Shown here piece after piece: positions 59,650 to 62,440 of a stretch of DNA of 64,000 nucleotides. The stretch lies in IMG/VR virus record IMGVR_UViG_3300027887_000330; one strand, 5' to 3'. A model generated the notes under the pieces. The model ran no database searches. It saw nothing but the letters and a program-made list of their open reading frames with translations, and was not told where the DNA came from. Source of the DNA: a virus (lineage: Duplodnaviria; Heunggongvirae; Uroviricota; Caudoviricetes). A program made the translations under genes and the position numbers. The stretch's first letter is position 1, and every line of letters starts with the position of its first letter.

Positions 59650-59743
59650 TTGGAGGAGGGTGAGGGACTCGAACCCCCGGACCTTGATACTATCTCAGCC
59701 TACAGTTTTCAAGACTGCTGCAATCGCCGCTCTGCCAACCCTC
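59650..59743 (-). tRNA. tRNA-Ser (anticodon UGA), class II with long variable arm, CCA encoded
   Basis: Reverse complement reads GGAGGGT...CTTGAAA anticodon loop...GGTTCGAGTCC T-arm...ACCCTCC-T-CCA. 7-bp acceptor. Confidence 0.8.
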
Positions 59744-59761
59744 CGAAGGTTGTGATTTGTG

Positions 59762-59851
59762 TGGTGGCGGAGGCAGGACTCGAACCTGCACGCTTAGGGC
59801 CCAAGCACTTCCAGCTCAGGGAAGCGAGTCTACCAATTCCTCCACTCCGCC
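59762..59851 (-). tRNA. tRNA-Leu (anticodon GAG), class II, CCA encoded
   Basis: GGCGGAG acceptor. GAG/CTC D-stem. Anticodon loop CTGAGCT (position 37 is C, which is atypical). Long variable arm. GGTTCGAGTCC T-arm. CTCCGCC-A-CCA. Confidence 0.75.
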
Positions 59852-59856
59852 ATTTA

Positions 59857-60258
59857 TCAGTACATCTTTCCGGCCGGTTTGAACCCTCCCTTACTCTTAT
59901 CTTTGTCCTTGGCCTTATTGTCCCCGCCTATGAATTTTGAGGCTGGGGGCGTTGGGGCCTGAGTATTGGGAACCGGGGCCGCTGGTTTTGCTGCTGCTAC
60001 CGGAATTTCTCTTCCCCCCTGGTTACATTGCTGCTCAGAGAGATTCTTACGCAGTTCGATTAGCTCACCCATTTCTTTTTTGACTTTGGCCCTTTTTATT
60101 TCTGCCGAAAAAGAACGGTCGTTAGCTATTTCAGCTAACACGGTGCTTTGTTGTTCAATGGACTTCTCTATGTTGAGAAGAGCCGACTGCATTTCCTCGC
60201 ACCCTGCATAGGAATACAAGGGAATGAGCAGAACCATCAATAACAAGAGGTATTTCAT
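59857..60258 (-). CDS. Lipoprotein (signal peptide with lipobox), Pro-rich
   Basis: MKYLLLLMVLLIPLYSYAGC lipobox at YAGC. Pro/Ala-rich segment AKPAAPVPNTQAPTPPASK. Confidence 0.55.
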   Translation of the reverse strand: MKYLLLLMVLLIPLYSYAGCEEMQSALLNIEKSIEQQSTVLAEIANDRSFSAEIKRAKVKKEMGELIELRKNLSEQQCNQGGREIPVAAAKPAAPVPNTQAPTPPASKFIGGDNKAKDKDKSKGGFKPAGKMY

Positions 60259-60464
60259 CCCCTAGCCTCCGCCGAGAGCCGACCTTTTGGGCGCTGTCTC
60301 TCTAGGGAATCGAAACTTCTTTGTATTCGCCTCCCCCACAGATTTATTTCACGAAGACTCAAATCGGGATTATCCCCAGTTACCTGGATATCTAAATGAG
60401 ATAAAGCCGCCAACGCCTCGTTGAGTAACTTTGTTTTGTTTTCGATATATTTAGTCGGTAACAT
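60255..60464 (-). CDS. Small hypothetical protein
   Basis: 69 aa. Coupled to the lipoprotein gene. Confidence 0.4.
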   Translation of the reverse strand: MLPTKYIENKTKLLNEALAALSHLDIQVTGDNPDLSLREINLWGRRIQRSFDSLERQRPKGRLSAEARG

Positions 60465-60490
60465 GTCGTTTTCCTTTCTTTTTATTCTTG

Positions 60491-60568
60491 TGGTCTAGGT
60501 GGCAGGATTTGAACCTGCGTTTACCTGGTTCCAAACCAGGGGGCTTAGCCAGACTGGCCCACACCTAG
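60491..60568 (-). tRNA. tRNA-Pro (anticodon UGG)
   Basis: CTAGGTG acceptor. Anticodon stem-loop CCTGG-TTTGGAA-CCAGG. GGTTCAAATCC T-arm. CACCTAG-A-CCA. Confidence 0.75.
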
Positions 60569-60572
60569 ATCG

Positions 60573-60660
60573 TGGTACGAGAGGGGGGAATCGAACCCCC
60601 ACGCGGTTTCCCGCCTGAGATTTTAAGTCTCAGTTGACTACCTAGTTCCAGCACTCTCGC
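60573..60660 (-). tRNA. tRNA-Leu (anticodon UAA), class II
   Basis: GCGAGAG-TG... Anticodon loop CTTAAAA. Long variable arm. GGTTCGATTCC T-arm. G1-U72 wobble in acceptor. Confidence 0.75.
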
Positions 60661-60663
60661 ATA

Positions 60664-60751
60664 TGGTAGGGGTGGTAGGACTCGAACCTACACGACGTTA
60701 CCGCCACCTGATCTTGAATCAGGCGAGACTACCAAATTCCTCCACACCCCC
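60664..60751 (-). tRNA. tRNA-Leu (anticodon CAA), class II
   Basis: GGGGGTG-TG-GAG...CTC D-stem. Anticodon loop TTCAAGA. Long variable arm. GGTTCGAGTCC. CACCCCT-A-CCA. Confidence 0.75.
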
Positions 60752-60756
60752 ATTAT

Positions 60757-60779
60757 GAAAAGGGGGACCGAAGTCCCCC
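60757..60779 (-). terminator. Terminator-like hairpin after rsr
   Basis: GGGGGAC-CGAA-GTCCCCC followed on the minus strand by UUUUCAUAAUG. Confidence 0.45.
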
Positions 60780-60792
60780 GGTTTATCGCTAA

Positions 60793-62235
60793 CTACTCGT
60801 TAGACTGCTCACTGAGCTCAAGCCCTTCATATCCCAACACATATGCCAGGAAATGTTCGGACCATCCTGCAATTTCCGCTGTCCACACGCCCTTGTAGGC
60901 AACGCCGTGCTTGTGTGCAGAAACGTCTATGATGTAGTTGTATCGGCCAAACGGAGCAGGTGTCTGCTTACCAGCTATGTCACAGTCCTGGCTATCAGAA
61001 AACACCATAATCCGGGCTGGATTTACTCCTCGCTCTTCAGCACGAATATATTCCAGACATTGCCGAGTGAAAATCCCGCCGCCGCCAAGGCTCCTCTCTG
61101 TGGTCTTGATCTCGTCCATAAGGGCGAAACCACGTCGAGGCTTAACCAGCGCAGTCTTATGGATTCTGTTGTGGTCATTACCAGCGGTAGCATATACAGA
61201 GATGCTTTCGCATACCTCTGATGCTATCATGGCAAGAGCACAAGCAGCGTCGATTCGACCGAACTCGCTCTTGGCACTGACTGTCCCTCTCATAGACCCG
61301 GACACGTCTACCACGAAGATAGTATGTCCAGGCAACTTAGGACTCTTAGCCAGTCCACGGAACATCATCTCTTCCAGTTCCCTCTCCCAACCACTTGCAT
61401 ACTTCTGAGCCTGCAGGTAGTTAAGAGGCAGCAACCAACGAGGGTTGATTGTCTGGAAACCTTCTCGAATGACATCTCGTGGGACGCCTATTTCACCCAT
61501 CAGCCTCAGGTTCCTCAAGAAAGCCAAGGCCCCCAACTTCTTCTCCCTGATTAGGCGAGTAAAAGTTTCGACCTTATTCTTACCTGCGGAAAGTGAAACT
61601 TCCCAGGTATCAGGGGATGGCATCGTTCGATCCTTGATCTGACGATACAGTTCTTCCCTGCCCTGAGGCGGCTTAGGACGAACCAACTTCATCACATCTC
61701 GGAACTTGACTGCGGAATCGCGGTCATATTTGGCAAAGTTATAGGTGTCAAACCTATATCTTTCATTGCCGTCTCTGTCCCGATTCCTGGCATCAAAAGC
61801 ACCGGCCAGTAACTTCTTTATCTGTCCAGACAAGGGCTGTCGCCCGTCCTTCCAGTACAAAGCTACCAACTCAGTGATTTCGTCCGCTCTCTGGAAGACG
61901 TCCGTCATCTCACCTACGTAAGATCGGTGGGTCTTCAAACGCGCCATCTCTCGGACTATCAACAGCGGCACATGTCGAAGCTTCTGCTTCAAACGCGCTT
62001 CAATGGCGATATTCTTTACGAGCTCAGGATGGACTACTGGAATGAGAGCCTTGATGTTATCCACCACGGACTTCCCATCCTCATAGAATAGATCCTCCCA
62101 GAGTAAGCATGCCATGACGGATCGTCTCAGCAACGCCTCTGCGTCCTGTCGAGCTGCGTAAGGGCCGTAGCCACCCGCTAAGCGGTGATTCTTGTCCTTT
62201 CTACGGTCTTCTGGTCTTATGTTTGTCTTTGCCAT
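60793..62235 (-). CDS. rsr: Ro60/Rsr-like protein (TROVE module plus vWA domain)
   Basis: C-terminal vWA with MIDAS DVSGSM (TIFVVDVSGSMRGT). N-terminal helical repeat region of TROVE size. 480 aa. Embedded in a tRNA cluster, as known for bacterial and phage rsr. Confidence 0.6.
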   Translation of the reverse strand: MAKTNIRPEDRRKDKNHRLAGGYGPYAARQDAEALLRRSVMACLLWEDLFYEDGKSVVDNIKALIPVVHPELVKNIAIEARLKQKLRHVPLLIVREMARLKTHRSYVGEMTDVFQRADEITELVALYWKDGRQPLSGQIKKLLAGAFDARNRDRDGNERYRFDTYNFAKYDRDSAVKFRDVMKLVRPKPPQGREELYRQIKDRTMPSPDTWEVSLSAGKNKVETFTRLIREKKLGALAFLRNLRLMGEIGVPRDVIREGFQTINPRWLLPLNYLQAQKYASGWERELEEMMFRGLAKSPKLPGHTIFVVDVSGSMRGTVSAKSEFGRIDAACALAMIASEVCESISVYATAGNDHNRIHKTALVKPRRGFALMDEIKTTERSLGGGGIFTRQCLEYIRAEERGVNPARIMVFSDSQDCDIAGKQTPAPFGRYNYIIDVSAHKHGVAYKGVWTAEIAGWSEHFLAYVLGYEGLELSEQSNE

Positions 62236-62304
62236 TGTTCAGCACTCCTTCAACACCGGCGAAACGCCGGGTAATAGCCCTCCTAACGGAGGGACGTTTC
62301 CTTG

Positions 62305-62391
62305 TGGTGCGGCAGGGGAGAGTCGAACTCCCACGCGGTTCCCCGCCCGAGATTCTAAGTCTCGGTTGACTACCAATTCCAGCACTACCGC
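62305..62391 (-). tRNA. tRNA-Leu (anticodon UAG), class II, CCA encoded
   Basis: GCGGTAG-TG... Anticodon loop CTTAGAA. Long variable arm. GGTTCGACTCT. CTGCCGC-A-CCA. Confidence 0.8.
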
Positions 62392-62395
62392 ACTG

Positions 62396-62440
62396 TGGTC
62401 GGGGTGAGAGGACTCGAACCTCCGATAACGTGCTCCCCGA
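62396..62440 (-). ncRNA. Truncated tRNA-like element (acceptor stem plus T-arm minihelix with encoded CCA)
   Basis: TCGGGGAGCACGTTAT-CGGAGG-TTCGAGT-CCTCT-CACCCCGA-CCA. Lacks D and anticodon arms. 4 nt upstream of tRNA-Leu(UAG) in the same orientation. Confidence 0.35.

Follow-up and report, generated by a model that had tools for sequence, protein, structure and literature searches.

A phage Ro60/Rsr gene in a tRNA cluster with no detectable Y RNA beside it

What RNA partner, if any, serves a Ro60 protein whose gene has no Y RNA beside it? The question is raised by a Ro60/Rsr-family gene encoding 480 amino acids (positions 60793..62235, minus strand) in a 64,000-nucleotide stretch of DNA, hereafter the window, from a virus of the class Caudoviricetes (IMG/VR record IMGVR_UViG_3300027887_000330). 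The DNA comes from wetland sediment. Chen et al. (2014, PMC4201824) defined YrlA as a Y RNA that has a tRNA-like module and is encoded no more than 4 kb from rsr, in the same orientation, and found it in 254 bacteria as well as 22 phages. The bacterial Rsr/YrlA/PNPase system has been described (PMC4201824), and Thermus phage phiLo encodes a Ro60 to which host PNPase (polynucleotide phosphorylase) and two Y-like RNAs encoded upstream of its gene were shown to bind (Hu et al. 2025, PMC12135203). What distinguishes the window locus is the absence of the otherwise near-universal cis-encoded Y RNA, and most likely the canonical RNA was lost. Reports of phage Ro60 with tRNA-like Y RNAs date back to 2014, and the structure of one, with Y RNAs and PNPase binding, appeared in 2025. 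The locus therefore opens no new category; its unusual trait is a missing Y RNA in a known kind of gene.

The Ro60/Rsr protein and the missing Y RNA

Membership of the window protein in the Ro60/Rsr family is secure on fold and architecture. A helical TROVE region (approximately residues 30 to 296) is followed by a vWA domain (approximately residues 300 to 470). The Pfam TROVE profile matched at E = 2e-7 (30.9 bits against a cutoff of 23), VWA_2 matched residues 305 to 415 slightly under its cutoff (E = 6e-5), and PHROG 850 ("RNA-binding protein") matched at E = 3e-29. The only family matched by phmmer among PDB sequences was the phiLo Ro60 (residues 42 to 475; E = 2e-10). We modeled the protein with AlphaFold from a 32-sequence alignment (predicted local distance difference test score, 81.5; predicted TM score, 0.75), which placed the helical region at residues 32 to 296. 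The first 13 Foldseek matches of the model were all Ro60/Rsr, with phiLo Ro60 the best (E = 1e-16). Full-length matches to Ro60/Rsr chains included Xenopus and human Ro60 and Deinococcus radiodurans Rsr (E = 1e-11 to 1e-8; TM score of about 0.6), and beyond the family only isolated vWA domains were returned, with a jump in E value from 1e-8 to above 1e-3. The metal ion-dependent adhesion site (MIDAS) motif DxSxS (D310-V-S312-G-S314, within FVVDVSGSM) is encoded at 61294..61308 (minus strand). In the 32-sequence alignment, D310, S312, S314, T390, and D414 are invariant; by comparison with the vWA fold, T390 and D414 are probably the remaining MIDAS residues.

The initial annotation, made from the sequence alone, had read this 480-residue protein with its MIDAS motif as a Ro60/Rsr ortholog with a TROVE-sized region, embedded in a tRNA cluster of the same orientation, and had proposed structure prediction and profile searches as a check. 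These bore the reading out: the model is a TROVE ring with a vWA domain, not a generic vWA protein. The cluster is equally real, as the gene sits among six tRNA genes, all on the minus strand and all called by both ARAGORN and Rfam.

The protein has more than 6,900 homologues at E ≤ 1e-10 in a very large and already known family whose phage distribution and tRNA-like partners have been described before; the Joint Genome Institute names the identical sequence "60 kDa SS-A/Ro ribonucleoprotein." Its nearest homologues in annotated phages are those of crAss-like phages, among them crAss001 gp96 ("TROVE domain-containing protein"); these Crassvirales proteins (PHROG 850) are 47 to 49% identical to it over the full length and are likewise encoded amid tRNA or transfer-messenger RNA (tmRNA) genes. 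These are followed by homologues from jumbo phages that infect Caulobacter, Brevundimonas, and Ralstonia and from small Xanthomonas phages. Phage Ro60 is widespread, with thousands of homologues, including in abundant gut crAss-like phages, where it belongs to early gene expression (crAss001 gp96 is early expressed). The phiLo Ro60 with its RNAs Yrl1 and Yrl2 (PDB 9L5Y and 9KOP; PMC12135203) is likewise a phage-encoded TROVE ring with a vWA domain and is the best match in both sequence and fold, although identity is only about 20%; for a mimic of its Yrl2, a KD of about 17 nM has been reported. Bacterial Rsr with YrlA/YrlB (Salmonella Typhimurium and D. radiodurans; RF02553; PMC4201824, which includes 22 mycobacteriophage cases) has the same protein architecture.

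To place the locus among its relatives, we used loci retrieved with 3 to 4 kb of flank per side. The closest relatives with DNA in IMG/VR and the metagenome collection are at most 63% identical at the protein level; a 74% identical relative (P0002) is known from a gene table. At L006 and L007, whose proteins are about 60 to 63% identical to that of the window, Rfam YrlA matches below threshold end 35 nt ahead of the start codon. Covariance model R1 was built from these two matches and model R2 from 32 confident hits. In the IMG/VR loci the models gave 84 hits at E ≤ 1 and 80 at E ≤ 1e-3, all on the strand of the TROVE gene. In the metagenomic loci there were 74 hits at E ≤ 1e-5, and 73 lay on the gene strand, the exception being a tandem tRNA. 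The Y-like RNAs detected in this way span the range from the nearest sediment-type phages to crAss-like phages (46 to 63% protein identity). Covariation strongly supports the structure: in the alignment, which was itself fitted to the covariance model, 93% of cells were paired, compared with 40 to 47% when the partners were slid, and 31 of 35 pairs had double changes.

An nhmmer census of the 91 loci whose flanks reach 1 kb or more on each side found such RNAs in 71, with 140 hits on the same strand and 0 on the opposite strand. Positive loci carried one to five Y RNAs, commonly two to five. Several apparent negatives (L013, L074, L099, L101, and L018) proved to have short, helix-only Y RNAs of 46 to 89 nt with the same ends, directly upstream of the gene. 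Both forms share a clade signature, 5' GUGGYGNAG...G-N-UACUUC and 3' ...YCGCYNNUUC, in which G-N-UACUUC never varies among the short forms and hardly ever among the long ones. The helix motif GUGGYGNAG differs from the strict GNCGAA of bacterial YrlA. In its strict form the signature occurred 131 times on the gene strand and 0 times on the other strand across 148 loci. The YrlA-type RNAs of the relatives, in which a bulged helix bears a permuted tRNA-like module, share the strand of the gene and lie within about 2.4 kb of it, in line with the definition in PMC4201824; upstream copies are found at about 35 nt to about 2.4 kb, and downstream copies as far as about 1.6 kb. The order in the nearest relatives is an AT-rich, promoter-like stretch, the short Y RNA, the long YrlA-type RNA, and the TROVE gene.

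The window locus departs from this pattern: a cognate same-strand Y RNA nearby, present in 71 of the 91 relatives, was not found. Searches with the Rfam Y_RNA and YrlA models at E ≤ 10, over 58000-64000 and over the 321-nt upstream stretch alone, returned tRNAs only, and so did Rfam at its gathering thresholds. R1 had no match in the window at E ≤ 1, R2 with filters off had none above 20 bits across all 64 kb, and the strict Y-RNA core signature had 0 matches on both strands of the window. The initial annotation had seen no canonical Ro-binding helix by eye, and none was detectable by Rfam, R2, or the signature scan either. Its suggestion that a Y RNA here might be divergent fared less well, since models that find Y-like RNAs in relatives of 46 to 63% identity detect none in the window. 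The known systems differ accordingly. The phiLo locus has two Y-like RNAs with a CGAA motif upstream, whereas in the window none is detectable and tRNAs and a tRNA-Pro-derived minihelix flank the gene; crAss-like loci have signature-bearing Y-like RNAs downstream of the TROVE gene, which the window lacks; and, compared with bacterial Rsr, the window locus has neither the Y RNA nor the context of an rtcBA repair operon.

Three candidates in the window were considered and set aside. The top R2 match was a 43-nt hairpin at 36462..36420 (minus strand), GUGGAGCAGUGUAAGA[8]UCUUACGCUCCUGAUC (19.8 bits; E = 0.009, a marginal value given the rough calibration of the model). It mimics both strands of the clade's basal Y-RNA helix with compensated changes and folds very stably (z = -3.7), but its location is within a probable 87-amino-acid coding sequence (36229-36492, with a good ribosome-binding site), 24 kb from the Ro60 gene, and it has no UACUUC motif; as a helix-only Y RNA it is probably a chance match. 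The best nhmmer match to the YrlA profile (E = 0.0025) is the junction between the T arm of the minihelix and the D arm of the adjacent tRNA-Leu. Chen et al. (PMC4201824) warned of the resemblance of tandem tRNAs to YrlA and filtered such cases out, and we take the match to be an artefact of this kind. A long-range helix around the minihelix and tRNA-Leu was also rejected: the minimum free energy (MFE) fold gives an alternative pairing, but its z score (-2.45) comes mostly from the tRNA, and the motif is absent.

Some features of the relatives' RNAs are worth recording in their own right. All Y-like RNAs seen at L006 to L151 score below the Rfam YrlA gathering threshold (e.g., 38 versus 69 bits), and standard annotation would therefore miss phage Y-like RNAs beside TROVE genes. 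ARAGORN calls of "tRNAs" for Pro, Ser, Asn, or Leu overlap strong YrlA-type matches at L009 (2058-2134), L073 (2791-2867), L075 (2064-2134), L034 (2392-2466), L045 (2638-2707), L083 (1602-1669), L080 (828-898), and L090 (2809-2882). These are probably misannotated Y RNAs and not tRNA genes. The "tRNA-Pro" calls in L009, L073, and L075 could have hinted at a general link between YrlA and tRNA-Pro, which we rejected, as the UUUGGGA loop occurs in those three only and other relatives differ. In crAss001, a 144-nt RNA (L001 5693-5836, plus strand; approximately NC_049977.1:96453-96596) occupies an unannotated gap after the TROVE gene gp96. Its score with the Rfam tRNA model is 46.6 bits, its acceptor, D, and T arms are all intact, and its 82-nt insert bears the phage Y-RNA core signature (UUGGUGUAGAAUAGAGU-UACUUC); the MFE fold pairs the canonical helix segments. 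Judged from its sequence and fold, it looks like an unpermuted YrlA whose ends lie at the acceptor stem and whose Y helix is capped by a loop. The literature that we searched made no mention of Y RNAs in crAss-like phages.

A tRNA-Pro-derived minihelix upstream of the gene

The slot just upstream of the Ro60 gene, where relatives have YrlA, is filled by tRNA-Leu(UAG) (62305-62391, minus strand; ARAGORN and Rfam). Four nucleotides further upstream on the same strand, 161 to 204 nt from the Ro60 start codon, is a 44-nt element (62396..62439) made of an acceptor stem, a 9-nt linker, a T arm, A73, and CCA (CGGGGAG-CACGUUAUC-GGAGG-UUCGAGU-CCUCU-CACCCCG-A-CCA). The acceptor stem has six Watson-Crick pairs and one A.A mismatch over seven positions, and the T stem has 5 bp with a consensus UUCGAGU T loop. 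By our own estimate, a 5' strand this complementary would arise by chance within 16 linker lengths with a probability of about 0.02. The hairpin is no more stable than shuffled sequences (z = -0.36). The Rfam tRNA model aligned only its acceptor and T arm (15.9 bits, with 33 model positions skipped), and ARAGORN did not call it as a tRNA; it is therefore a tRNA derivative rather than a tRNA. The truncated tRNA-like minihelix reported here by the initial annotation (62439..62396, minus strand; acceptor, T arm, and CCA) thus exists. It shares its architecture with tRNA acceptor/T-arm minihelices, including an encoded CCA, and, unlike generic minihelices, it is genome encoded, is apparently derived from tRNA-Pro by internal deletions, and occurs only once.

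Its origin can be read from the ends. The acceptor end (C1:G72 and A73) and the T arm are of the tRNA-Pro type. The 3' 25-mer has exact matches in more than 120 bacterial genomes of many phyla, and in nine of ten sampled genomic matches it is the 3' end of a tRNA-Pro gene. Identity to bacterial tRNA-Pro genes extends over 26 to 27 nt up to A73 and includes the 5' CGGGG. Between these identical ends the element keeps, in order, G7, CA from the D stem, CGTT from the anticodon stem, and A, remnants that fit internal deletions removing the D and anticodon arms. It is best read as an internally deleted tRNA-Pro of bacterial type; the phage's own full-length tRNA-Pro is quite different. The 25-mer is too widely conserved across phyla to indicate the host.

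An acceptor/T-arm minihelix, the top half of a tRNA, is a minimal substrate of RNase P and of the CCA-adding enzyme. Because the element retains its acceptor stem, T arm, and CCA and adjoins a tRNA, ordinary tRNA processing would be expected to release it as a small RNA, in keeping with the substrates known for RNase P.

The initial annotation had offered the minihelix and the tRNAs themselves as candidate Rsr-associated RNAs. We found no tie between them and the protein: apart from being encoded less than 4 kb from the Ro60 gene and on its strand, the minihelix has none of the defining features of YrlA. In place of the permuted module of YrlA (T arm, closed acceptor-like hairpin, and D arm), it has an open acceptor stem and a T arm but no D arm. 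For the basal stem-bulge-stem, neither a GNCGAA-like nor a GUGGYGNAG motif occurs in 62236-62480, and the fold of this region has no convincing enclosing helix. R2 matched the T arm only (10.6 bits). A descriptor of the minihelix had no equivalent in any of the relatives' loci, including L005, and a pattern scan of IMG/VR contigs revealed no second copy. As the element is found in no relative, no conservation or covariation supports a function.

Possible explanations for the missing Y RNA

The protein itself carries a change of interest. An Arg-rich insertion at residues 149 to 160 (ARNRDRDGNERY; 61756..61791, minus strand) is predicted to form a beta-hairpin (strands 150 to 152 and 158 to 160 in the AlphaFold model). 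Among the 120 best homologues, an insertion here (7 to 12 residues) is found only in the window protein, P0002 (74% identical), and P0003 (62% identical; locus L005), which also share substitutions at nearby, otherwise conserved positions. In an alignment of about 20% identity, it coincides with the segment of phiLo Ro60 that bears the RNA-contact residues R163 and R169 (contacts from PMC12135203), so that it may map, with low confidence, to the Y-RNA-binding face. In the same alignment, the phiLo RNA-contact residues K141 and K142 correspond to K140 and K141 of the window protein, and R137 corresponds to S136. More than 100 family-invariant residues are kept. L005 likewise has no YrlA-type RNA (a hairpin at its positions 1193-1236, tried as a Y RNA specific to this subclade, does not fold as such; z = -0.7). 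The apparent correlation between the insertion and a missing YrlA is a lead and not a result.

Our preferred reading, to which we give a probability of roughly 0.6 (a figure that includes the identity of the protein), is that this is a genuine phage Ro60 that has lost its canonical partner and acts free of Y RNA or with a noncanonical ligand. A HEAT-repeat (TROVE) ring closed by the vWA/MIDAS domain would be expressed from within the phage tRNA gene cluster. By analogy with characterized Ro60 proteins, it would bind structured or misfolded RNA; homologues have been shown to bind misfolded RNA in their central cavity and to associate with PNPase (PMC12135203 and PMC4201824). It may also engage a host 3'-5' exoribonuclease such as PNPase and so modulate RNA decay or quality control during infection. 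Sequestration of host PNPase through Y RNAs has been suggested by a single biochemical study of a phage Ro60. The Y-RNA cassette, of the YrlA or short helix-only type in nearly all relatives, appears to be missing not only from the slot that it usually occupies but from all 64 kb of the window, and that slot is taken by tRNA-Leu and the truncated tRNA-Pro minihelix. In that case the protein would function in the absence of a dedicated Y RNA or else together with a noncanonical RNA ligand, and the Arg-rich insertion fits a changed ligand. A natural Ro60 without the near-universal cis Y RNA, and with a lineage-specific change that may map to the RNA-binding face, would be a useful comparison for the contribution of the Y RNA.

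Several points weigh against this interpretation. The hairpin at 36462..36420 does match as a helix-only form at E of about 0.01, and models trained on relatives would miss a Y RNA that had diverged strongly. The window holds just 1.8 kb upstream of the Ro60 gene, and the source contig may be 78.7 kb long, so a Y RNA could lie outside the window. (According to the gene table of a second contig, the next 3 kb upstream is tightly packed with open reading frames [ORFs], so that hardly any space remains for a Y RNA there.) Binding of RNA or PNPase by the window protein is proposed by analogy with its homologues, the placement of the insertion on the RNA-binding face depends on an alignment of low identity (about 20%), and its correlation with the lack of YrlA comes from two loci with DNA only, the window and L005.

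The first two of these points lead to the alternative that a Y RNA exists but is unseen, either beyond the 64 kb or too divergent, with the 43-nt hairpin as a candidate. The possibly longer source contig, the retention of K140/K141 and of the family-invariant residues, and the compensated changes and stability of the hairpin (19.8 bits; E = 0.009; z = -3.7) would all agree with it. Yet the relatives' Y RNAs are close to the gene (at most about 2.4 kb upstream or 1.6 kb downstream) and the hairpin is 24 kb away, within a probable coding sequence, lacking G-N-UACUUC, and marginal in its E value, and we consider this alternative doubtful. It is unlikely that the minihelix, the flanking tRNAs, or the pre-tRNAs replaced the Y RNA as the Ro60-bound RNA and supply the tRNA-like module through which YrlA recruits exonucleases or tRNA-recognizing enzymes. 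In favor of such a replacement, the minihelix and tRNA-Leu are exactly in the slot that YrlA holds in the nearest relatives, and neither acceptor strand of the minihelix has been lost; its T arm is perfect, its CCA is present, and there is no substitution against bacterial tRNA-Pro over its 3' 26 to 27 nt. The replacement would also suit the subclade-specific basic insertion on the putative RNA-binding face, the best nhmmer YrlA match at the minihelix/tRNA-Leu junction (E = 0.0025), and crAss001, where tRNA-shaped RNAs with free acceptor ends seem able to carry a Y helix. However, the junction match is the tandem-tRNA artefact flagged by Chen et al. (PMC4201824), and the minihelix lacks the basal bulged helix with its GNCGAA or GUGGYGNAG motif, the part of the Y RNA that Ro60 contacts (PMC12135203; PMC4201824). 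In addition, its stability is unremarkable (z = -0.36), one position of its acceptor stem is an A.A mismatch, and no relative has it, L005, the other subclade member with DNA, included. A more elaborate version, in which the subclade (window phage, P0002, and P0003) remodeled the Y-RNA face with the Arg-rich beta-hairpin, dropped Y RNAs, and uses its own tRNA-shaped RNAs (here the CCA-ended minihelix) as an adaptor coupling the Ro60 ring to host exonucleases or tRNA-processing enzymes, strikes us as slightly less probable again.

The minihelix could instead be unrelated to Ro60, an attP-type remnant of integration into a host tRNA-Pro gene. Its 3' 25-mer is exact in tRNA-Pro genes of the more than 120 bacterial genomes, and three viral contigs (L273, L278, and L280) contain partial copies of this tRNA-Pro. 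Those copies are of the att type, however, running from the anticodon stem to the 3' end with no 5' acceptor strand, whereas the minihelix has a 5' acceptor strand (CGGGG.G) and D-stem (CA) and anticodon-stem (CGTT) remnants. No integrase was found among the 30 larger window ORFs scanned or the immediate neighbors, and the gene content of the window resembles a lytic replication module. With the 5' acceptor strand kept and no integrase found, we therefore regard an attP origin as very unlikely, and loss of the canonical partner from a genuine phage Ro60 locus remains the reading that we prefer.

Locus layout and neighboring genes

The other five tRNA genes (all minus strand; ARAGORN and Rfam) lie downstream of the Ro60 gene in two blocks. 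The first (60491..60751) comprises tRNA-Leu(CAA) (60664-60751), tRNA-Leu(UAA) (60573-60660), and tRNA-Pro(UGG) (60491-60568), and the second, 0.6 kb beyond (59651..59851), comprises tRNA-Leu(GAG) (59762-59851) and tRNA-Ser(UGA) (59651-59744). As read from the sequence, all six tRNA genes of the window encode their CCA end. Five of the six are class II tRNAs (Leu UAG, CAA, UAA, and GAG and Ser UGA), an unusually skewed set. Between tRNA-Leu(UAG) and the start codon, a 5' leader (62236..62304, minus strand) has, by sequence and fold, two small hairpins (CCCUCC/GGAGGG and CCGGCG/CGCCGG) and a ribosome-binding site (GAAGGAG); its fold is indistinguishable from shuffles (z = -1.2). Right after the Ro60 stop codon is a terminator-like GC hairpin (60762..60779, minus strand; GGGGGAC-UUCG-GUCCCCC followed by UUUU; z = -2.4).

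In a census of 58 IMG/VR phage loci, tRNA or tmRNA genes flanked the TROVE gene in 37, all on the same strand, a few of these calls really being YrlA RNAs. The TROVE genes of L002, L014, L023, L040, L055, L058, L061, L067, and L068, mostly crAss-like loci, are preceded by a same-strand tmRNA gene at a distance of no more than 3 kb. On the L006 contig, matches to the twister-sister ribozyme (2709-2778, plus strand; 42.9 bits versus a gathering threshold of 34) and to the CRISPR-DR2 repeat (1720-1749, minus strand; 40.9 versus 37 bits) are found 1.2 to 2.3 kb upstream of the TROVE gene.

A scan of 38 window ORFs for RNA-repair partners (RtcB, RNA ligase, Pnkp, and CCA-adding enzyme) found none, and the only tRNA-related neighbor was a YqeY/GatB-like gene (58322..58705, minus strand; Pfam YqeY, E = 5e-14), which we note as context. 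A YqeY/GatB-like gene is also listed downstream of the TROVE gene in the gene table of the P0002 contig, where the gaps flanking the TROVE gene (238 and 326 nt) are similar in size to those of the window; this suggests conserved YqeY-TROVE synteny between the two.

The replication genes of the window are of phage type and encode a DNA polymerase, ribonucleotide reductase, helicase, NAD-dependent ligase, single-stranded-DNA-binding protein, ThyX, and RNase HII. At 42740-44143 (minus strand) is a gene for a 467-amino-acid protein with WGR, PARP regulatory, and PARP catalytic domains; in this architecture it resembles a eukaryotic poly(ADP-ribose) polymerase, here carried by a phage-like element. 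An SPFH/Band-7 protein is encoded at 44446-45714 (minus strand), and crAss001 also has one near its TROVE gene. Further genes encode a DHH/DHHA1 phosphoesterase (47231-48322), a radical SAM protein (39272-40312), and a LAGLIDADG endonuclease (23555-24490), all on the minus strand, and a papain-family C1 peptidase on the plus strand (11155-11898).

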